The notes beneath the pieces are model-generated. The model saw only the letters and a program-made list of their open reading frames with translations, was not told the DNA's origin and ran no database searches. Position numbers and translations under genes: made by a program. A DNA stretch of 38,349 bases from a virus (lineage: Duplodnaviria > Heunggongvirae > Uroviricota > Caudoviricetes), in the IMG/VR virus record IMGVR_UViG_2681813146_000009, positions 1 through 38,349 of that record; one strand, given 5' to 3'. Below are positions 4,529-22,954 of this stretch, piece by piece. Numbering within the stretch: the stretch's first letter is position 1; each line of letters starts with the position of its first letter.

Positions 4529-4586
4529 AAAAAGGGCGGCAGAGCAGTCACGGAGTAAAACTGATACCGCCAAACGTCACCAGAAA
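4529..4586 (-). ncRNA. dicF: DicF small RNA (ftsZ-targeting sRNA), ends approximate
   Basis: Minus-strand sequence TTTCTGGTGACGTTTGGCGGTATCAGTTTTACTCCGTGACTGCTCTGCCGCCCTTTTT matches recalled DicF; ends in GC-rich stem plus T-run; lies between ydfC-like and dicB as in Qin. Confidence 0.85.
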
Positions 4587-6344: not shown

Positions 6345-6983
6345 TTAAATATCTTGTTGAATTTTAAAGCATACGCCCAATATGCAAGATAGATCATCCA
6401 GCATAATTGAAGGGTAGCGAGGATTCGTGGGGACTAAAAGAATATCCGGCCCTTCTATCTCCAGTTTACGAATGACAGGTGTTGTGGTCCCTTTGGGTAA
6501 GGCAAGGACAATATTTCCTGGTTGTACGGTTCGATCGGGATCAACAAAAACTGTTGAACCATTTGGGATGGAAACTCCCCCACCAGATGTTGACATACTG
6601 TCACTCTCTAGAACAACTGCAAAGGTATTGACCGGGATTTCTCCGACAAGCTGCACACAAGAGGTTATTGAGGAATTTTTCATATAATCACTCCAGCTTG
6701 CTGCCTGCTGAAGTGATAGTAGCGGAACCGTTTTTATCGGCGGTAAAGATAGATCAAGCGAATCACCTGTATTTAACTCTCCTCCATTAAGAAGCCAATT
6801 TTCGTTTACTTTCAATATTTTTGCCAGTGAACTTATGTAACGCGAGGACGGCGCTCCTCCACCGTTCATCCATTGACTTACGGAGCCTTTTGATGCGCCA
6901 GTGCCATTGACAAGGTCTTTGCCTTTCAGGTTTAGCGCATGCATACGTTGGGTTATGCGTTCAGATATAGTTTGCTTGCTCAT
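6345..6983 (-). CDS. cI: CI-type repressor (N-terminal HTH, C-terminal S24 LexA-like autopeptidase domain)
   Basis: 212-aa ORF; XRE-type HTH region; S24-like Ser (DSMSTSGG) and Lys (VIRKL) motifs; divergent from cro. Confidence 0.9.
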   Translation of the reverse strand: MSKQTISERITQRMHALNLKGKDLVNGTGASKGSVSQWMNGGGAPSSRYISSLAKILKVNENWLLNGGELNTGDSLDLSLPPIKTVPLLSLQQAASWSDYMKNSSITSCVQLVGEIPVNTFAVVLESDSMSTSGGGVSIPNGSTVFVDPDRTVQPGNIVLALPKGTTTPVIRKLEIEGPDILLVPTNPRYPSIMLDDLSCILGVCFKIQQDI

Positions 6984-12025: not shown

Positions 12026-12227
12026 ATACAGCGAACGCCATTGGTTTAGTTGGATATTTACTGTGCCGGACAAAAACGGTTTGCGGGGAAATCTTAGTTA
12101 AGTAGAATGACTGCGGGTGCTTGAGGCTATCTGTCTCAGGCATGAACACCAAAAGGCAGATAGAGAAAAGCCCCAGTTAACATTACGCGTCCTGCAAGAC
12201 GCTTAACATTAATCTGAGGCCATATCT

Positions 12228-12287
12228 ATGCGACACATAGAGATTAGCCTCTTACGGACCGAAAGGTCAAGGAGAAGCAGGCTATGA
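12228..12287 (+). CDS. Short leader ORF overlapping hok start (mok-like coupling element, tentative)
   Basis: 19-codon ORF with TGAGG upstream; stop overlaps hok ATG as ATGA. Confidence 0.3.
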   Translation: MRHIEISLLRTERSRRSRL

Positions 12288-14316: not shown

Positions 14317-15138
14317 ATGAAACTGGAAGATTTACCGAAATACTACTCCCCAAAATCCCCTGGCCTGACCGATGCATCGGCCTCAACGTCAAAAGATGCG
14401 CTGAGTATCACTGATGTGATGGCCGCGCAGGGCATGACACAGAATCGGGCTGAGATGGGTTTTTCTGCGTTCCTGGGGAAAATGGGCATCAGTATGAATG
14501 ACAGGGCGCGGGCAACAGAATTACTGGCAGATTATGCACTCAGTCGGTGCGATCGTGTGGCGGCGTTGAGAAAACTTCCGGCAGAAATAAAACCGGTAGT
14601 GATGCGCATTATGGCTTCGTACGCTTTTGAGGATTATGCCCGCAGCGCAGCGAGTAAAAAGCAGTGCCCTTGTTGCTATGGGGAAAAATTTATTGAAAGC
14701 GTAGTTTTTACAAACAAGGTCCAGTATCCGGATGGTAAGCCGCCGGTATGGGCAAAGTGTACGAAAGGTGTGTATTCGTCTTACTGGGAAGAATGGAAAA
14801 AAGTCAGGGAGGTGGTAAAAGTTGCCTGTCCGGAGTGTGGCGGAAAGGGTGAGGTTTCCACCGCCTGTAAGGATTGCCGTGGGCGTGGTGTCGCCATTCA
14901 TCGTGAAGAGTCGGTAAAACGTGGTATGCCTGTTATCAGAGACTGCCAGCGTTGTGGTGGTCGTGGCTATGAAAGACTACCATCAACGGAGGCATTTAAT
15001 GCTATATGCGAGGTGACAAACCAGATAACACGCGCGTCATGGGAAAAAACAGTTAAGAAATTCTATGATGCGCTGGTGACCCGGTTTGATATTGAAGAAG
15101 CATGGGCTGAGCGGCAGTTAAAAAAGGTAACTAGGTAA
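14317..15138 (+). CDS. Q: Late-gene antiterminator Q (Cys-rich zinc-binding type)
   Basis: 273-aa ORF with multiple CxxC pairs; immediately upstream of PR'-like promoter, terminator and tRNAs. Confidence 0.75.
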   Translation: MKLEDLPKYYSPKSPGLTDASASTSKDALSITDVMAAQGMTQNRAEMGFSAFLGKMGISMNDRARATELLADYALSRCDRVAALRKLPAEIKPVVMRIMASYAFEDYARSAASKKQCPCCYGEKFIESVVFTNKVQYPDGKPPVWAKCTKGVYSSYWEEWKKVREVVKVACPECGGKGEVSTACKDCRGRGVAIHREESVKRGMPVIRDCQRCGGRGYERLPSTEAFNAICEVTNQITRASWEKTVKKFYDALVTRFDIEEAWAERQLKKVTR

Positions 15139-15171: not shown

Positions 15172-15220
15172 CGTCATAACAATGGGCTTTTTATGCCTGG
15201 CGTTAGAAGAGTTTCTACAA

Positions 15221-15242
15221 CCCGCCGCCGAGCGGGTTTTTT
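15221..15242 (+). terminator. Rho-independent terminator (tR'-like): CCCGC-CGCCGA-GCGGG plus T-run
   Basis: GC stem-loop followed by TTTTTT. Confidence 0.7.
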
Positions 15243-15281: not shown

Positions 15282-15357
15282 GGCCCTTTAGCTCAGTGGT
15301 GAGAGCGAGCGACTCATAATCGCCAGGTCGCTGGTTCAAATCCAGCAAGGGCCACCA
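15282..15357 (+). tRNA. ileZ: tRNA-Ile2 (anticodon CAT, lysidine type; ileZ-like) with encoded CCA
   Basis: Manual cloverleaf: acceptor GGCCCTT/AAGGGCC, anticodon loop CTCATAA, T-loop GGTTCAAATCC; close to recalled E. coli tRNA-Ile2. Confidence 0.8.
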
Positions 15358-15457: not shown

Positions 15458-15531
15458 GCGTTGTTAGCTCAGCCGGACAGAGCAATTGCCTTCTAAGCAA
15501 TCGGTCACTGGTTCGAATCCAGTACAGCGCG
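15458..15531 (+). tRNA. tRNA-Arg (anticodon TCT; argN/argO-like)
   Basis: Manual cloverleaf: acceptor GCGTTGT/ACAGCGC, anticodon loop CTTCTAA, T-loop GGTTCGAATCC. Confidence 0.75.
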
Positions 15532-15644
15532 CTATATTCATTCTTCCAGATTCCTTCCGGCAGAGCCTTATACTGAAATATACCTGGCTCAGGATATTGT
15601 TGAAAATATTTTATGTTTGTCAAAAATAAAAGTTCTGTTAAGTA

Positions 15645-16165: not shown

Positions 16166-16390
16166 CCGGGTATCAGTTAGCGGGAGAAATTTTTAAATAC
16201 TTCACAATTCAGGCGGTTGACTGTTGTCTGGTTTGCGGGGAGTTTGTTAAAAGAAACTGGCATGGTGAATCCCCCTGTGCGGAGGGGCAATCAGCGAGTA
16301 GGTATATGGGATAATCGCGGATTCAGGTGCTGGTACTGAATTCACCGGGAGGCACCCGGCACCATGCAATGGCACATAGCGCCACTCTCC

Positions 16391-16425
16391 AGCCCCTCTC
16401 CGGAGGGGCTGTTTATATTGATTTT
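16391..16425 (+). terminator. Candidate rho-independent terminator (AGCCCCTC-TCCG-GAGGGGCT plus T-rich tail)
   Basis: 8-bp GC stem with tetraloop followed by GTTTATATTGATTTT. Confidence 0.5.
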
Positions 16426-16445: not shown

Positions 16446-16781
16446 TTATGGACTTTGTTGTTTTAGTCCATAAGGACATATTTGCAGAGTGCAACGGTTA
16501 TTAAAGCATTCATTCAATACGTTATCTGTATTTGTAGGACATTCCTGGCTGTTTTTGATTAAATTCCAGAATGTTTTATTGAATGGTGCTACGTTGTAAA
16601 TGGTTACAGGTAGCACTTTGTTATTGAGCATGATACCTGTGTGAGTCAGTGTAAATATACTTTCAGGAGGTAAGAAAGCATCCGATTGATACCAGATTAT
16701 TAATTTTATTTTACTCCATATGACTGAAAAAGATATTCCGCATGATGGCTGGATAACTGTATCAATCACAATCCACTTCAT
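16446..16781 (-). CDS. Hypothetical protein (111 aa) in AT-rich island
   Basis: AAGGAAA RBS 6-7 nt upstream of ATG; coding 3' end carries a perfect 10-bp inverted repeat. Confidence 0.55.
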
Positions 16782-17041
16782 TTAGTTTCCTTGTTTATGT
16801 CTTGCTGGTGATGTTCTGAAAAGTATAAATGATATTTTTGAATGTAAACCATAGAGCAGAATTATTTTTCTGATGTTGTTTATTGTTTATTTAAATGCAG
16901 GGTGGTTTATATCTCGTCTTGTAGTTTATCCATGCATATCTGCTTGATGATGAGGTTTTTATTTAAGGTATGGTTTTGTGTTTTTTCTGTATTACATGTC
17001 AGGTATTTTAAAGAATTATTTTTCAGATGGTGGAAAGAACC

Positions 17042-19003
17042 ATGGCATTTAAACACTATGATGTTGTCAGGGCGGCATCGCCGTCAGACCTTGCGAAACG
17101 ACTGACACAAAAACTGAAGGAGGGGTGGCAGCCATTTGGCAGTCCGGTGGCCATCACGCCTTATACCCTGATGCAGGCCATTGCGGCGGAAGGTGATGTC
17201 ACCACACCTGTGGTGGTGAAGCCGTCGGATGGAGAAGGCGCAGTTATCAGCACCACCAGCAACCCGGAGTATTACTTTGTTGTTGCCCTGGCCGGGCAGT
17301 CAAACGGTATGGCGTATGGTGAAGGGCTTCCGCTGCCGGAGACATATGACCGTCCGGACCCGCGTATTAAACAGCTGGCGCGTCGCAGCACTGTCACGCC
17401 GGGTGGTGCGTTCTGTAACTACAATGACATTATTCCTGCGGACCACTGCCTGCATGATGTTCAGGATTTGAGTAAGTTTTCACACCCGAAAGCCAGTGCA
17501 GCTCAGTATGGATGCGTGGGGCAGGGATTACATATCGCGAAGAAATTGTTGCCGTTTATTCCGGCGAATGCCGGTATTCTTCTGGTTCCGTGCTGCCGTG
17601 GTGGTTCTGCATTTTTGGCGGGCGATGAAGGTACCTTCAGCGAATCCACCGGCGCAAGCGAGACCTCGGCACGCTGGGGTGTAGATAAGCCACTGTACAA
17701 GGACCTGCTTACCCGTACTCAGGCCGCACTGAAGGCCAACCCTAAAAATATTCTGCTTGCAGTGGTCTGGATGCAGGGCGAGTTTGATTTGAAACAGGGT
17801 GCATACGCCACTCAGCCGGGGCTGTTTGATTCCATGGTGGAAAAATATCGTTCTGACCTGTCGGAATTCGGAGGTCAGTGTCTCGGGGGCTCTCCGTCAT
17901 CGGTTCCCTGGATTTGTGGCGACACGACCTACTACTGGAAGCAGACTTATTCTTCGCAATACGATGCGGTGTATGGTGCATACAAGACGAAATCCGCAAA
18001 AAAAATCTTCTTTGTGCCGTTTATGACGGATGAAAACGGGCGAAATGTGGGTACCAACGAGCCGTCAGAAGATCCGGATGTTGCGGATATTGGGTATTAC
18101 GGAGCCGGTGGTCGAACGGACGCCAAAACCTGGACGACGGCTGACCGTAAAACGCATTTTGGATCATGGGCACGTCGTGGGATTATTTCCGACCGTCTGG
18201 CAACGGCGATTCTTGTGCATGCCGGGAGAAACGCTGAATTCATTACCGGAAAACAGCCTGATACGGTGAAGCCCACCGGACCTTCCGGTGAAGGTACGGA
18301 GAGAGAGCCGGAAGCCCCGGTCAGTAACCGAACCCTGATGAGTCTGCTGGCGTCCGGCGAAGACCTGGCATCACAGGGCTGGCGCTATTATCACAAACCG
18401 GCGAGCGGAGACAATGTTAACAAAAACATTGCTGAAGCGGTGGTCAGTGATGCGGGGGCTACGGGAGGTAAGGCCCTGCAACTGAATAAACCGGAAAACC
18501 ACATCTGGTTTCTGGAGCATGATGCAGCCGGACAGGGAGTGGAGTTACTGAAGAAGGGGGGACGTGTGAGCGTACGGTTTAAGTTGCCGGGTTCACTGGT
18601 GCCGAATCAGTTTGCCCTGGGCATTTACTGGCAGTTGTCGTCCCTGCCGGAGGGAGTGACGCTGGCAGAGGAAGGCAACGACATGCTGATGTCCTTCTTT
18701 CTGCAGACGGATGCGACGAACCTGAACGCGATGCACCACAAGAAGCCGAATGCGAAGCTGGAAACGTTCGGGGTCTTTGATAACGGATGGCACACACTGG
18801 CTTTTGAGTTTGCCGGAAACAACAGCATTCAGGTGACGCCGGTACTGGATGAGAAACGGGGGACGCCGTTCACACTGGTGAAATCTCCGGCATCAGGGGC
18901 GGCGGACAAACTGCAACTGACAGGCATATCAAAGGCGGCGACATATACGCTGCTGATTGACAGTGTGAAGGTGGAAGTGAACAACGCGGACATCGCGGCA
19001 TGA
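17042..19003 (+). CDS. nanS-p: Prophage sialate O-acetylesterase NanS-p-like (N-terminal DUF1737-like region plus SASA-type esterase)
   Basis: 653-aa ORF starting MAFKHYDVV; recalled similarity to EHEC prophage NanS-p; position downstream of Q/tRNAs and upstream of lysis genes as in Stx phages. Confidence 0.8.
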   Translation: MAFKHYDVVRAASPSDLAKRLTQKLKEGWQPFGSPVAITPYTLMQAIAAEGDVTTPVVVKPSDGEGAVISTTSNPEYYFVVALAGQSNGMAYGEGLPLPETYDRPDPRIKQLARRSTVTPGGAFCNYNDIIPADHCLHDVQDLSKFSHPKASAAQYGCVGQGLHIAKKLLPFIPANAGILLVPCCRGGSAFLAGDEGTFSESTGASETSARWGVDKPLYKDLLTRTQAALKANPKNILLAVVWMQGEFDLKQGAYATQPGLFDSMVEKYRSDLSEFGGQCLGGSPSSVPWICGDTTYYWKQTYSSQYDAVYGAYKTKSAKKIFFVPFMTDENGRNVGTNEPSEDPDVADIGYYGAGGRTDAKTWTTADRKTHFGSWARRGIISDRLATAILVHAGRNAEFITGKQPDTVKPTGPSGEGTEREPEAPVSNRTLMSLLASGEDLASQGWRYYHKPASGDNVNKNIAEAVVSDAGATGGKALQLNKPENHIWFLEHDAAGQGVELLKKGGRVSVRFKLPGSLVPNQFALGIYWQLSSLPEGVTLAEEGNDMLMSFFLQTDATNLNAMHHKKPNAKLETFGVFDNGWHTLAFEFAGNNSIQVTPVLDEKRGTPFTLVKSPASGAADKLQLTGISKAATYTLLIDSVKVEVNNADIAA

Positions 19004-19139: not shown

Positions 19140-19322
19140 ATGACATTTATTCATCAGGTAATGCTGTACTTCTGTATGGCAGTCTGTGTTATGTATCTTC
19201 TTTCGGGTGGGTACAGGGCAGTGCGCGATTTCTGGCGCAGGCAGATTGATAAAAGGGCCGCTGAGAGAATCAGCGCCAGTCAGTCAGCCGGAAGCAAACC
19301 CGAAGATCCGCTCATTCCGTAG
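19140..19322 (+). CDS. Possible small membrane protein (60 aa)
   Basis: Hydrophobic N-terminal segment; weak RBS. Confidence 0.3.
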   Translation: MTFIHQVMLYFCMAVCVMYLLSGGYRAVRDFWRRQIDKRAAERISASQSAGSKPEDPLIP

Positions 19323-19359: not shown

Positions 19360-19605
19360 ATGTCAGAAATCACATCCCTGGTCACTGCTGAGGCAGTGAA
19401 GGAAGTCCTGCGCTCTGAAGAAGTCCTGAGCGCACTGAAACAGAAACTCCGCCAGAACCTTGAGTCGCGTCTTGATGCAGAAGTGGATGCCATTCTGGAT
19501 GAGCTGCTGGGCGTACCAGCGGTTCCGGAGCCGGAAGGTATCGCGGGTGACGGGAGTGCTTCAGATGGCGGTGAACCCACACCTGACAGCGACATGATGA
19601 TGTAA
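19360..19605 (+). CDS. Hypothetical acidic protein (81 aa)
   Basis: Internal ATG of ORF 19186..19605; weak RBS. Confidence 0.4.
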
Positions 19606-19681
19606 GCCTGCGCAAGGGACCATCGGTGTGTGCCGGTGGTCTTTATATTGTTGTGAGCTTCCGGATAACGGGAGACGGGGT

Positions 19682-19897
19682 ATGTACCAGATGGAAAAAA
19701 TCACAACAGGTGTGTCATACACCACGTCAGCGGTGGGAACGGGCTACTGGTTCCTGCAGTTGCTGGACAGGGTTTCCCCGTCTCAGTGGGCGGCAATAGG
19801 CGTGCTGGGGAGTCTGCTGTTTGGGCTGCTGACGTACCTGACTAACCTGTATTTCAAAATCAAAGAGGACCGGCGTAAGGCGGCGCGGGGAGAGTAA
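19682..19897 (+). CDS. S: Class II pinholin (S21-type) with dual-start motif (Met1 antiholin, Met4 holin)
   Basis: [29 protein letters not shown]...[13 protein letters not shown] closely resembles recalled phage 21 S; GGGAGACGGGG RBS. Confidence 0.85.
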
Positions 19898-19901
19898 AGT
19901 G

Positions 19902-20792
19902 ATGAATAAAAAATATGAACTGGTTGTTAAGGGGATAAATAATTACGGGGATAAGGTTACTGTTACTGTGAAGTCGGAAGGTGACGGGCAAGCGTCGCTG
20001 TTGTTGCCAGATGTGGCGATTAGTCTTGACCGTACTGAAGGTGCCACGCTGGAGTTTTACGAAGCTGAGGCGAAAAAGCAGGCGAAGCAGTTTTTCATGG
20101 ATGTTGCTGCCGGGTTATGTGAATGGAACGAACCGTTGCCGGAAAAGCGCCCCGTAATTTTAGAGGCGCAGGATGTGTTGATAACCTACAAAGGAAAGCT
20201 ACCGGGAAGAATTACTTGTTCTCTGAAGATGCCGCCGTCAACACTGCGGTCAGAAAAAGATGATGTTGAATCACGTATTGAAAAACTGGAGAGCTACGTC
20301 GTTGAGCTGAATAAGAAATGGTCGATATTGGTGCCTTCTGGCGATGAAAAGCAGTTTGCTGCGTTTGACGATTATTGTCGGAAAGTGATGAGCAGAAATC
20401 TCGCAGAGTGTTTCAGTATTCATAATGATAATTTCAGTGACCCGGAATGGGAGTGTAACCGGCCATCCTTTGTTGTATCCGGTGATGCTGGGAAAATAAC
20501 CATCTCAGAAAATGGGAAAGTAACACCTCCATCGCACCAGCACAGTGAGGAGCTCATTGAATTTGCCATTGATTACCTGAAGAACAATAAAAAGCAGGGG
20601 CTGATGAAGCGCGTTGGCCGTTGCATGGGATATCTTCAGGTAGCCGCTGAGATTGAAGCGCTGGCCAGTGGTGCTGATAAGGATGCAATTGTGCGGGAGG
20701 CTCTTCTTCGTGATTTTAATACTCCACCCTTTAAAAAAGTGCCGGCTTACTGGCTTCATCCGGGGCTGACTTATCTTAAAGTGCGTATTTAG
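19902..20792 (+). CDS. Hypothetical protein (296 aa) inserted between holin and endolysin
   Basis: ORF starts 4 nt after holin stop with GGGGAGAG RBS; no TM segment or motif I recognise. Confidence 0.7.
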   Translation: MNKKYELVVKGINNYGDKVTVTVKSEGDGQASLLLPDVAISLDRTEGATLEFYEAEAKKQAKQFFMDVAAGLCEWNEPLPEKRPVILEAQDVLITYKGKLPGRITCSLKMPPSTLRSEKDDVESRIEKLESYVVELNKKWSILVPSGDEKQFAAFDDYCRKVMSRNLAECFSIHNDNFSDPEWECNRPSFVVSGDAGKITISENGKVTPPSHQHSEELIEFAIDYLKNNKKQGLMKRVGRCMGYLQVAAEIEALASGADKDAIVREALLRDFNTPPFKKVPAYWLHPGLTYLKVRI

Positions 20793-20828: not shown

Positions 20829-21362
20829 ATGAACACCAAAATCAAATACGGCCTGTCGGCTGCCGTTCTGGCGCTGATTGCCGCTGGTGCGCCTGCGCCT
20901 GACATTCTCGACCAGTTTCTGGATGAAAAGGAAGGCAACCACACCACGGCATACCGTGATGGTGCAGGTATCTGGACCATCTGCCGTGGTGCCATCATGG
21001 TGGATGGCAAACCTGTCGTTCCGGGCATGAAGTTGTCGAAGGAAAAATGCGACCAGGTTAACGCCATTGAGCGTGATAAAGCGCTGGCGTGGGTGGAGAA
21101 AAACATCAGAGTGCCGCTGACCGAACCCCAGAAAGCGGGGATCGCGTCATTCTGTCCGTACAACATTGGTCCCGGTAAGTGTTTCCCGTCGACGTTTTAC
21201 AGACGAATTAATGCTGGTGATCGAAAAGGTGCCTGCGAAGCGATTCGCTGGTGGATTAAGGACGGTGGCAGAGACTGCCGTATTCGTTCAAACAACTGTT
21301 ACGGTCAGGTATCCCGTCGTGACCAGGAGAGCGCGCTGGCGTGCTGGGGTATCGACAGATAA
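20829..21362 (+). CDS. R: SAR endolysin (R21-type lysozyme, GH24-like)
   Basis: N-terminal hydrophobic Ala/Gly-rich SAR segment; C-terminal similarity to recalled phage 21 R. Confidence 0.85.
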   Translation: MNTKIKYGLSAAVLALIAAGAPAPDILDQFLDEKEGNHTTAYRDGAGIWTICRGAIMVDGKPVVPGMKLSKEKCDQVNAIERDKALAWVEKNIRVPLTEPQKAGIASFCPYNIGPGKCFPSTFYRRINAGDRKGACEAIRWWIKDGGRDCRIRSNNCYGQVSRRDQESALACWGIDR

Positions 21363-21518
21363 GCAGAATATTTTGCTGAAAAATGAGGAATGGCCACGCG
21401 GGCGGATAACACGAAATCCTGCGAACTGGCGAAACGTAAGTGAATAAAAGTAAAAACCCCGTTTGTTGGCACCAAGCGAGGTTTTGTGTTTCTGACCTTG
21501 AGTAAGGCAAGGGAGAAC

Positions 21519-21701
21519 ATGGCGAAGTGTAAACGAATTCTGTTGAGGTTGACTATGAAAAATGGCCTTGAACTGAAAGCGCCTGTAACTGATGACATCA
21601 GCAGAGCACTGGCTTTTGCCATTAAGTGGGTGGCGGTCGGTGTTGCTGTGTCCCCGATGCTGTATGGGCTGGCAAAACTGGTCATTGCGTTGAAATCGTG
21701 A
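21519..21701 (+). CDS. Small protein with C-terminal TM segment (60 aa); alternative start 21555
   Basis: AAGGGAGAA RBS before ATG 21519. Confidence 0.4.
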
Positions 21702-21715
21702 AGGGAGGATTAAGC

Positions 21716-21847
21716 ATGTCAGACAAACTCATAACGCTGGCGAAGATCCTCTGTGTAATTGTCGGCATTTCATTTTCACTAATGCTGGTTGCTCTTTTTC
21801 TTTCCATGGCCTGGATGATGTTGTCTTCGTCGGGGTTGCTGGGGTGA
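21716..21847 (+). CDS. Small membrane peptide (43 aa)
   Basis: AAGGGAGG RBS before ATG 21716; single hydrophobic helix. Confidence 0.4.
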
Positions 21848-22317
21848 ACATAAACCGAATGCTTTCCGCGTTTATCGTTATTCTGCTGGTGGCCTGTGGT
21901 GCGCTGTGGATGGCAACAGACCATTACCGTGATAACGCGATTACCTACAAAGCGCAGCGCGATAACAAAGCCAGTGAACTGAAGCTGGCGAACGCAACCA
22001 TTACTGATATGCAGGTGCGCCAGCGCGATGTTGCTGCGCTCGATGCAAAATACTCGAGGGAATTAGCCGATGCGAGAGCTGAAAATGAAACTCTTCGCGC
22101 TGACGTTGCCGCTGGTCGTAAGCGCCTGCGGATCAACGCCACCTGTCCAGGCTCCGTGCGTGAAGCCCCCACCACCTCCGGCGTGGATAATGCAACCGGC
22201 CCCCAACTGGCAGACACCGTTACACGGGATTATTTCACCCTCAGAGAGCGGCTGATGACGATGCACAAGCAACTGGAAGGGGCACAGGACTATATCCGCA
22301 CTCAGTGCCTGAAATAA
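21844..22317 (+). CDS. Rz: Spanin inner-membrane subunit Rz (start GTG 21844 or ATG 21859)
   Basis: N-terminal TM, coiled-coil; [15 protein letters not shown] motif as in lambda Rz. Confidence 0.85.
22070..22255 (+). CDS. Rz1: Spanin outer-membrane lipoprotein Rz1, embedded in Rz in +1 frame
   Basis: Lipobox VVSAC; proline-rich [14 protein letters not shown] matches lambda Rz1. Confidence 0.8.
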
Positions 22318-22627
22318 GTTTTGTTGATGCGCCGTATCGTCGCTATATTCCCTCATTAACAGAGACCGCAGCCCGACAGGGAGACTCCTCTGCGCGAGTG
22401 TGCGGGGATAATTAAAAACGATGCACACCGGGTTTTTACCGCGTTAATGATTCGCGGGTTTATCCCGGTGCGATGGTGGAAGAAACAGGAAGCTGTATTA
22501 CAGAAAGTGCTACTACTGTATCCCGATGCGATGTATGTAATGTGAGTCAGATAATGGCACAGGATGTGGTGATGTGGCAGTCTGGAACACAGGATATATT
22601 GTCAGAATAAGACCCGTAGGAATAAAA

Positions 22628-22954
22628 ATGAAAAGACGCCTTTTACTACTTTTTCTGTTATCTGTCCTGGCAGTGGGATGCTCGCAGCAAAAAGCTGATG
22701 AGCCCCGGCAATTAGTGACGGTGTATCCACGATATCCGGAATATGCTGCAGCAAATTATATCAAGGGGCTGGTTGAGGTTAAGTTCGATATTGGTGCTGA
22801 TGGGACTGTGACACGGATCGTTTTTCTCCGCTCAGAGCCTCATAATTTGTTTCGTGATGAAGTGGTGAAGGCCATGGCGAAATGGCGATTTGAAAAGAAT
22901 CGCCCCTGTCAGGGAGTGAAGAGACAATTTATCTTTACGCCGTCACGTCCTTGA
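22628..22954 (+). CDS. Lipoprotein with TonB C-terminal-like domain (108 aa)
   Basis: Signal peptide with lipobox LAVGC; YPxxA...GxVEVKFDIGADGTV...AMAKWRFE resembles TonB_C signature; AGGAATAAAA RBS. Confidence 0.7.
   Translation: MKRRLLLLFLLSVLAVGCSQQKADEPRQLVTVYPRYPEYAAANYIKGLVEVKFDIGADGTVTRIVFLRSEPHNLFRDEVVKAMAKWRFEKNRPCQGVKRQFIFTPSRP

Follow-up and report, generated by a model that had tools for sequence, protein, structure and literature searches.

The window analysed here is the whole 38,349-nt stretch of DNA in the IMG/VR record IMGVR_UViG_2681813146_000009 (positions 1 to 38,349), a prophage of the Caudoviricetes whose lysis region carries a gene for a 296-aa protein between the holin gene (S) and the endolysin gene (R). 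The gene runs on the + strand from an ATG at 19902 to a TAG stop at 20790–20792 (19902..20792). The listing of open reading frames (ORFs) opens the same frame at a GTG (19899..20792, +), and the in-frame ATG at 19902 yields the 296-aa product. On its upstream side lies an S21-type class II holin, or pinholin, of 71 aa with an MYQM dual start (19682..19897, +; PF04971, E = 7.2e-33; phrog_9876 and phrog_20, both annotated 'holin'). Downstream, 36 nt after the ORF, follows a 177-aa lysozyme (20829..21362, +; PF00959, E = 2.4e-24; phrog_7, annotated 'endolysin'). Read from its translation, this enzyme begins with a hydrophobic, Gly/Ala-rich N terminus (YGLSAAVLALIAAGA) and contains an E-x8-D-x5-T triad, and we therefore regard it as an R21-like signal-anchor-release (SAR) endolysin.

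The original prediction described an ORF with a good ribosome-binding site abutting the holin stop codon, and this description holds in detail. The holin TAA stop occupies 19895–19897 and the ATG of the 296-aa ORF lies 4 nt further on. A Shine–Dalgarno-like stretch read from the sequence, GGGGAGAG (19887..19894, +), sits within the 3′ end of the holin gene and places its GGAG core 9 nt upstream of the ATG at 19902. A holin-to-ORF gap of 3–4 nt recurs in the Qin prophage of Escherichia coli K-12 and at three of the related loci that we compared (L010, L013 and L015). The closeness of the two genes (4 nt) and the siting of the ribosome-binding site within the holin gene suggest that the protein is translated together with the holin and hence would be made only late after induction. 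A lenient scan found no promoter-like site on the + strand between S and R, and its sole + strand terminator-like match in this interval was a weak hairpin at 20751–20768, in the 3′ end of the ORF. It is therefore natural to infer that the ORF shares the Q-dependent late transcript with the lysis genes, in keeping with the late co-expression originally proposed. GC content is 43–48% within the ORF and 52–56% in its flanks.

The same prediction called the gene unrecognised, a label that does not stand. The 296-aa ORF almost certainly encodes a long, two-module form of the YdfR/DUF1327 family: PF07041 (DUF1327) matches aa 1–100 at 137.9 bits against a cut-off of 25 (E = 1.3e-40; profile positions 1–88 of 93), phrog_1085 is matched end to end (protein 1–296 on profile 1–296, E = 3.1e-190), and identical copies are already named in NCBI. 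Homology to K-12 YdfR and the position after an S21-type holin agree with this assignment; the small, single-domain form of about 100–115 aa does not apply, as the window protein has 296 aa and adds a helical hairpin and a C-terminal module. At least 1,000 public contigs encode the exact protein, which is called YdfR family, DUF1327 domain-containing or hypothetical protein there. Many complete E. coli genomes share the 1.8-kb S–ORF–R stretch at 100% identity, and in these the Prokaryotic Genome Annotation Pipeline names the product 'YdfR family protein', and at least 80% of the stretch is contained in 554 of 5,426 complete E. coli genomes. As an object the gene is already known, as phrog_1085, as the NCBI 'YdfR family protein' and as orf5 of Shiga toxin (Stx) phage 86. 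Almost certainly, too, lambdoid prophages of Escherichia, Shigella and Salmonella carry it as a non-essential accessory, always tied to the pinholin/SAR-endolysin cassette of the Q-dependent late operon.

Alignments and two mutually agreeing AlphaFold2 runs divide the protein into four parts. The run using E. coli homologues only reached a mean predicted local distance difference test (pLDDT) score of 53, and the run that added Salmonella homologues reached 58.7. The N-terminal DUF1327/YdfR domain (aa 1–76; 19902..20129, +) is acidic and is predicted to comprise three strands and a long helix (pLDDT 65–87). It is followed by a Pro-rich, predicted disordered linker (aa 77–118; 20130..20255, +; pLDDT 23–35), which is also present in the common 112-aa short forms; tblastn matches over aa 1–112 were found in 62 phage records. 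The third part is a helical hairpin or coiled-coil-like segment (aa 119–172; 20256..20417, +; pLDDT about 50–58), the most variable portion of the protein and the one in which most insertions and deletions between alleles fall. The conserved C-terminal module (aa 186–296; 20457..20789, +), hereafter the C module, is basic with an isoelectric point of about 9, is without a Pfam family and is predicted to form three short strands plus helices (pLDDT 68–88 for aa 190–260). Its motif reads H-x3-I..L..(M/L)K(R)(L/I)GR(C/S/A)MG(Y/L)LQVAAEIEA ... DF(D/N)xPPFK..P..W..PG..YLK.R(I/L), within which H214, K(R)xGR(C)MGxLQxAAEIEA at 236–252 and DFxxPPFKxxPxxWxxPGxxYLKxR at 271–295 are nearly invariant. The idea that the C module is an internal duplicate of the N domain, both of which are predicted to run from three strands into helix, was rejected (hhalign probability below 1%). 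Among other E. coli homologues, P0047 and P0054 carry DUF1327 domains duplicated in tandem, and a 305-aa form present on 275 contigs (P0057) ends in about 90 residues unrelated to the C module.

The original prediction of a soluble-looking protein with neither a transmembrane segment nor a catalytic motif is borne out. The grand average of hydropathy on the Kyte–Doolittle scale is −0.41, indicating a soluble protein, and no transmembrane or hydrophobic segment was found across the 296 aa, the highest 19-residue Kyte–Doolittle mean being 0.75. Scans of the protein with Pfam and NCBIfam returned no catalytic domain, and the NCBIfam scan returned nothing significant at all.

Selection has acted on both conserved modules. 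In pairwise Nei–Gojobori comparisons with the homologous genes of Stx2_95, phage 86 and three E. coli loci, the ratio of nonsynonymous to synonymous divergence (dN/dS) was 0.28–0.62 overall, 0.16–0.37 for the C module (aa 186–296), 0.17–0.60 for the N domain (aa 1–76) and 0.4–0.9 for the middle segment. Against locus L013, dS is 1.13 in the N domain and 0 in the C module; the alleles are thus mosaic, with recombination breakpoints between the modules. Because dN/dS lies below 1 and the exact protein recurs on 1,000 or more contigs, these comparisons of sequence indicate that the 296-aa ORF is a real gene under purifying selection and not a chance ORF.

The best-known relative is K-12 YdfR (P76160, b1555), encoded in the cryptic Qin prophage and assigned to the same family (PF07041), with 47% identity to the window protein over aa 1–74. 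Qin shares the layout and coupling of the window (essQ, a 4-nt gap, ydfR, rrrQ and rzpQ), but the 103-aa K-12 protein consists of the N domain and an unrelated short tail and lacks the linker, the hairpin and the 110-aa C module. Full-length homologues occupy the same S–R slot in the Stx2-converting phage 86 (orf5, YP_794052.1, 268 aa) and in the Stx2a phage Stx2_95 (BCI50300.1, 329 aa). Both belong to phrog_1085, are 70–78% identical, are annotated as hypothetical or YdfR family proteins, and differ from the window protein in the middle segment, where residues have been inserted or deleted. Before R, phage 86 has an additional convergent ORF of 104 aa with no counterpart in the window, and the window prophage, unlike the Stx phages, is without stx genes.

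More distant relatives preserve the layout at low identity. Prophages of Salmonella enterica harbour a sister clade with N domain, coiled coil and C module that is 25–32% identical overall; between the two genera the C modules are 39–47% identical and the N domains are homologous (hhalign probability 91%, E = 1e-6), although the Salmonella N domain falls below the reach of the Pfam DUF1327 profile. Two examples, P0151 (298 aa) and P0168 (257 aa), show this N–coiled coil–C layout in a late operon with a class II holin, a SAR endolysin and Rz. The Salmonella gene differs in lying directly upstream of its holin, which is of the HP1 type (PF16080) and is followed by the SAR endolysin and Rz, and some of the encoded proteins have a Cys-rich stretch in the C module. 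A further N+C homologue from an enterobacterial contig (P0142) is more distant, sharing 30% identity with phage 86 orf5 across 81% of its length, and an S21-type holin, lysozyme and Rz are found two genes downstream of its gene. The constant association is thus with the holin/SAR-endolysin cassette and not with the precise S–R gap.

The C module has a very narrow distribution. An exhaustive HMMER search with aa 113–296 against 1.84 billion cluster representatives returned only 25 proteins, and a scan of one genome per species across 185,579 species, using an alignment of the C module only, returned three loci, all in Escherichia or Shigella. No Pfam model covers the module, either in the window protein or in any of the 51 family members scanned at E ≤ 5, in which DUF1327 and scattered coiled-coil noise were the only matches. 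The C module forms a separate family, confined to prophages of Escherichia, Shigella and Salmonella.

Its arrangement relative to DUF1327 varies. N-only forms of 103–112 aa are the commonest in E. coli, and among E. coli loci with a C module a 185-aa C-only form is as frequent as the 296-aa form (29 and 29); frameshifted copies make up about 7 of 101 loci. At three E. coli loci (L010–L012, 3001–3897) the order is swapped, so that the holin is followed by a 213-aa C-module ORF, a 75-aa DUF1327 ORF, a reverse 95-aa ORF and the lysozyme. Because the fusion is kept at low identity, both modules are under purifying selection and fission occurs with a swap of order, we suggest that the N and C modules cooperate and that fusion, fission and order swapping are the signature of a two-part device.

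Some relatives carry a convergent reverse ORF of 86–106 aa after the long YdfR gene, and small reverse (− strand) ORFs near that gene were recorded at L002 (4085–4399), L008 (4771–5091), L003 (3852–4112), L010 (3902–4189) and L017 (4849–5145). The phage 86 copy and one from Salmonella are 41% identical (E = 3e-27) and both match phrog_1853; unrelated small reverse ORFs at other loci match phrog_2572 and phrog_10490. Pfam returned no match for the neighbouring ORFs of related loci. The phrog_1853-type ORF may be a partner gene, and it is absent from the window, where 36 nt separate the 296-aa ORF from R.

How often the slot between holin and endolysin is filled was measured by a holin-anchored census, which is unbiased with regard to the ORF. 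Eighty IMG/VR loci encode a holin at least 97% identical to that of the window; 71 of them have a lysozyme downstream, and the slot counts refer to these 71. N-only genes fill the slot at 34 loci, N+C genes at 14, C-only genes at 10 and other cargo at one, and at 12 the slot is empty, the holin abutting the lysozyme with a gap of 5–8 nt. A YdfR-family gene is therefore present in 58 of the 71. The original prediction had taken a 21-type holin to be directly followed by the endolysin; that arrangement fits phage 21 itself and not the majority of these cassettes, being seen only at the 12 empty loci, and Qin in K-12 likewise reads essQ–ydfR–rrrQ. The comparison of presence and absence across related cassettes that the prediction proposed thus finds the gene to be polymorphic, in a slot that is usually occupied.

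Larger collections give a similar picture of wide occurrence. In the GenBank phage set, 368 records match the S-to-R region and 106 of these have a YdfR-family gene; most of the 106 are Stx1a, Stx2c or Stx2a phages with the 112-aa form, and the long form is found in only three. Across the 5,426 complete E. coli genomes, N-domain DNA occurs at 6,716 places in 3,158 genomes, C-module DNA at 970 places in 787 genomes and the S21-type holin at 16,738 places in 5,153 genomes.

Searches for function were negative over a broad range of resources. A sequence-profile search of the PDB with the 51-sequence alignment gave a best E value of 0.2, to beta-lactoglobulin, which we regard as noise. Foldseek comparison of the predicted model gave a best E value of 0.34 against the PDB and, against BFVD, a best of 6.6e-3 to an uncharacterised protein with poor superposition. 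PADLOC-DB v2 yielded no significant match (best PbeC, E = 0.018, 11.3 bits), and there was no match in the PHROG 'lysis' category, every matching PHROG being of 'unknown function'. No characterised lysis accessory protein was matched in Pfam, NCBIfam, PHROG, PADLOC, the PDB by sequence or fold, or BFVD, so that on this point profile and fold searches left the original prediction intact.

T4 Srd and T7 gp0.7 are phage modulators of RNase E that retune host RNA decay. The best functional lead for the window protein comes from the short K-12 homologue. Our literature search found no functional study of the DUF1327/YdfR family besides a single report on K-12 YdfR (Gopel et al., RNA Biol 2026, PMC13232886). 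There, a bacterial two-hybrid screen three times yielded a fragment of residues 1–72, which binds RNase E residues 1–597, full-length YdfR interacted by two-hybrid with RNase E's N-terminal half (Rne 1–597), Rne 1–598 co-eluted with Strep-YdfR, and DNase-resistant nucleic acid co-purified with the protein; ydfR was silent in uninduced cells, with almost no RNA-seq reads. Over aa 1–74, which correspond to the RNase E-binding region of K-12 YdfR, the window protein shares 47% identity with it (BLASTP, E = 6e-21).

By analogy with K-12 YdfR, the window protein may be a cytoplasmic, adaptor-like protein made late together with the holin. Its DUF1327 domain would dock on host RNase E at the catalytic N-terminal half, the helical hairpin may oligomerize the protein, and the C module would bind RNA or another partner. 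Late RNA, the long late/lysis transcript for example, would as a result be decayed or processed differently, and lysis timing or burst size would be affected only indirectly, if at all. We favour this late RNase E/RNA adaptor mechanism over direct lysis regulation or defence cargo, and we hold it tentatively, as a possibility that may well prove wrong. The composite of identity, anatomy, late expression and adaptor mechanism, taken together, falls somewhat short of an even chance of being correct. It is unlikely, on present evidence, that the protein represents a new kind of phage RNase E adaptor in which DUF1327 anchors the protein to the catalytic half of the host enzyme, the C module selects an RNA or protein target and late transcripts, those of the lysis genes among them, are stabilized or processed differently.

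Known modulators of RNase E offer a possible functional analogy only. RapZ uses one surface for the RNase E N-terminal half and has a separate RNA domain (PMC7430671). The phage phiKZ protein Dip is likewise a modulator of RNase E (PMC4980113), and it differs from the proposed mode of action in binding the C-terminal scaffold and not the catalytic half. Comparison with the RNase E modulators of solved structure (Dip, RapZ and RraA) revealed no similarity of sequence or fold in the window protein.

Several observations weigh against the adaptor mechanism. Over-production of K-12 YdfR barely alters the transcriptome and has no effect on growth, which makes a strong global effect of the N domain alone on RNase E unlikely; the RNase E interaction is known only for the over-expressed 103-aa K-12 protein, and in the two-hybrid assay the full-length protein scored only with Rne 1–597 (PMC13232886). 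Confidence in the AlphaFold2 model of the window protein is no more than moderate (mean pLDDT 58.7). N-only genes are common, as are C-only genes, so the modules need not act jointly.

Direct control of lysis is a natural rival for a gene that, in three divergent clades, always adjoins a holin/SAR-endolysin cassette and that is coupled translationally to the holin, which would keep the two products in fixed proportion. The soluble P1 LydB and the T4 RI/RIII antiholin factors are the model for such a regulator. It would attach to the pinholin on the cytoplasmic side, or to the still unreleased SAR endolysin, and would delay or sharpen triggering. S21-71 antiholin, P1 LydB, T4 RI/RIII and Mu releasin gp25 are made late, as the window protein would be, and are likewise encoded in or beside lysis cassettes; the window protein has no similarity to any of them, matches no PHROG of the 'lysis' category, has neither a transmembrane nor an amphipathic membrane segment, and fills a slot that is dispensable with the same holin. 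Indeed, because that slot is empty at 12 of 71 loci with a near-identical holin and is elsewhere filled interchangeably by N-only, C-only and N+C forms, the gene cannot be required for this holin. S21 also already encodes its own antiholin through its dual start, and the Salmonella gene lies upstream of the holin, so that either side of the holin occurs. A weaker point in the same direction is that the C module stands beside an S21-type holin (PF04971) in E. coli and an HP1-type holin (PF16080) in Salmonella. The Keio ydfR deletion did score in an envelope-leakage screen (PMC3879167 supplement); the resistance cassette probably had a polar effect on rrrQ, the lysozyme gene that follows, and we set the phenotype aside as functional evidence. 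Overall, we consider direct regulation of lysis timing distinctly unlikely.

A cargo gene inserted at a recombination hot spot of the late operon, serving defence, anti-defence or superinfection exclusion, would account for the lower GC content relative to the flanks, the polymorphic presence and mosaic alleles, and the very small family with its narrow host range. A small cassette is further suggested by the convergent phrog_1853 ORF that accompanies the gene in some E. coli and Salmonella relatives, and neighbouring slots of related prophages hold HicAB and Tad2-like genes. Such a moron remains an unlikely explanation, as the protein has no PADLOC match (E = 0.018, 11.3 bits) and as its gene, tightly coupled and with no promoter-like site of its own, would be silent in the lysogen and expressed only late, which is ill-timed for defence or early anti-defence; K-12 ydfR is almost without RNA-seq reads in uninduced cells (PMC13232886). 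Fusion without joint function, in which DUF1327 and the C module are unrelated accessory genes joined by deletion as a weakly selected by-product of the hot spot, is quite improbable. It would fit the predominance of N-only genes (103–112 aa), the equal frequency of the 185-aa C-only and 296-aa forms, the existence of separate C and N genes in swapped order, the frameshifts in about 7 of 101 loci and the nearly neutral middle segment, with dN/dS of up to 0.9. Each module is nonetheless under purifying selection, and retention of the N–hairpin–C layout at 25–30% identity in Salmonella and on another enterobacterial contig is hard to explain without selection.

That the ORF is untranslated or a pseudogene can hardly be right, even though RefSeq annotation of identical copies implies it. 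In strain MCJCHV-1 (NZ_CP030111.1, 2863033–2863923; our locus L102), the identical ORF is given as a pseudogene fragment of the first 112 codons only, labelled 'YdfR family protein; incomplete; missing C-terminus', and the other 184 codons are unannotated, as they are in several genomes. All 296 codons are open behind a good ribosome-binding site, dN/dS is well under 1, frame and motifs are kept in homologues down to 25% identity, and further NCBI records name the 296-aa protein as a normal coding sequence. The pseudogene call is probably artefactual and due to the use of reference proteins of 103–112 aa for a long form.

The remainder of the lysis cassette is conventional. Rz, the i-spanin (21844..22317, +; PF03245, E = 2e-47), closes it, with the o-spanin gene Rz1 embedded (22070..22255; PF06085, E = 4e-20). 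The 480-nt gap between endolysin and Rz contains two small + strand ORFs with hydrophobic segments (21486–21701 and 21626–21847) that have no Pfam match, and RefSeq annotates hypothetical proteins of 60 and 43 aa there. Directly after Rz/Rz1 lies a lipoprotein-like ORF (22574–22954, +) with a TonB C-terminal domain (PF03544, E = 1e-12), named 'TonB family protein' in RefSeq, at the position where lambda and phage 86 have bor. Upstream, a 13-pair hairpin between DUF826 and the holin start (19615–19644, +) was flagged by the terminator scan and may instead belong to a translational control region of the holin.

Beyond the cassette, the late region carries an intact 658-aa NanS-p-type esterase (DUF1737, SASA and DUF6645; 17027–19003, +), followed by DUF1378 (19140–19322) and DUF826 (19360–19605), the set that usually lies downstream of stx in Stx phages and that stands here without stx genes. 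Two tRNA genes (15282–15357 and 15458–15532, +) lie just 3′ of the Q antiterminator gene (14317–15138) and a terminator-like hairpin (15219–15238), as in Stx-phage late regions; one has a CAT anticodon (Met by ARAGORN, Ile for the RefSeq homologue) and the other is tRNA-Arg(TCT). Between the tRNAs and the esterase gene is a reverse 111-aa ORF (16446–16781, −) without a Pfam match, the homologue of which RefSeq names 'anti-adapter protein IraM'. Rfam matches above the gathering score comprise the small RNA STnc100 (16231–16420, +), upstream of the esterase gene, the sok antitoxin RNA of a hok/sok-type locus (12115–12286, +) and the small RNA DicF in the early region (4534–4585, −).

These findings reveal no new element, as the family is catalogued and found in most E. 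coli genomes. The analysis adds the boundaries of the C module, the ways in which it is fused with, split from and reordered against DUF1327, the finding that Salmonella conserves it, the counts of slot occupancy and the annotation artefact; a long-form reference model could correct the RefSeq mis-annotation of 184 conserved codons. Some 110 aa long, the C module stands apart as a unit under strong constraint that no Pfam family covers and that occurs in a very narrow range of hosts, and in Stx-type and related prophages the slot between pinholin and SAR endolysin is usually filled. With the RNase E binding reported in 2026 for K-12 YdfR, there is now a concrete and testable hypothesis for the occupant of this slot. 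On the less likely reading of a new kind of RNase E adaptor, the protein would tune burst size, lysis time or toxin yield, the transcripts affected including those of the toxin-region genes in Stx phages, and the N-only and C-only short genes would represent a two-part adaptor that has been split or has degenerated.

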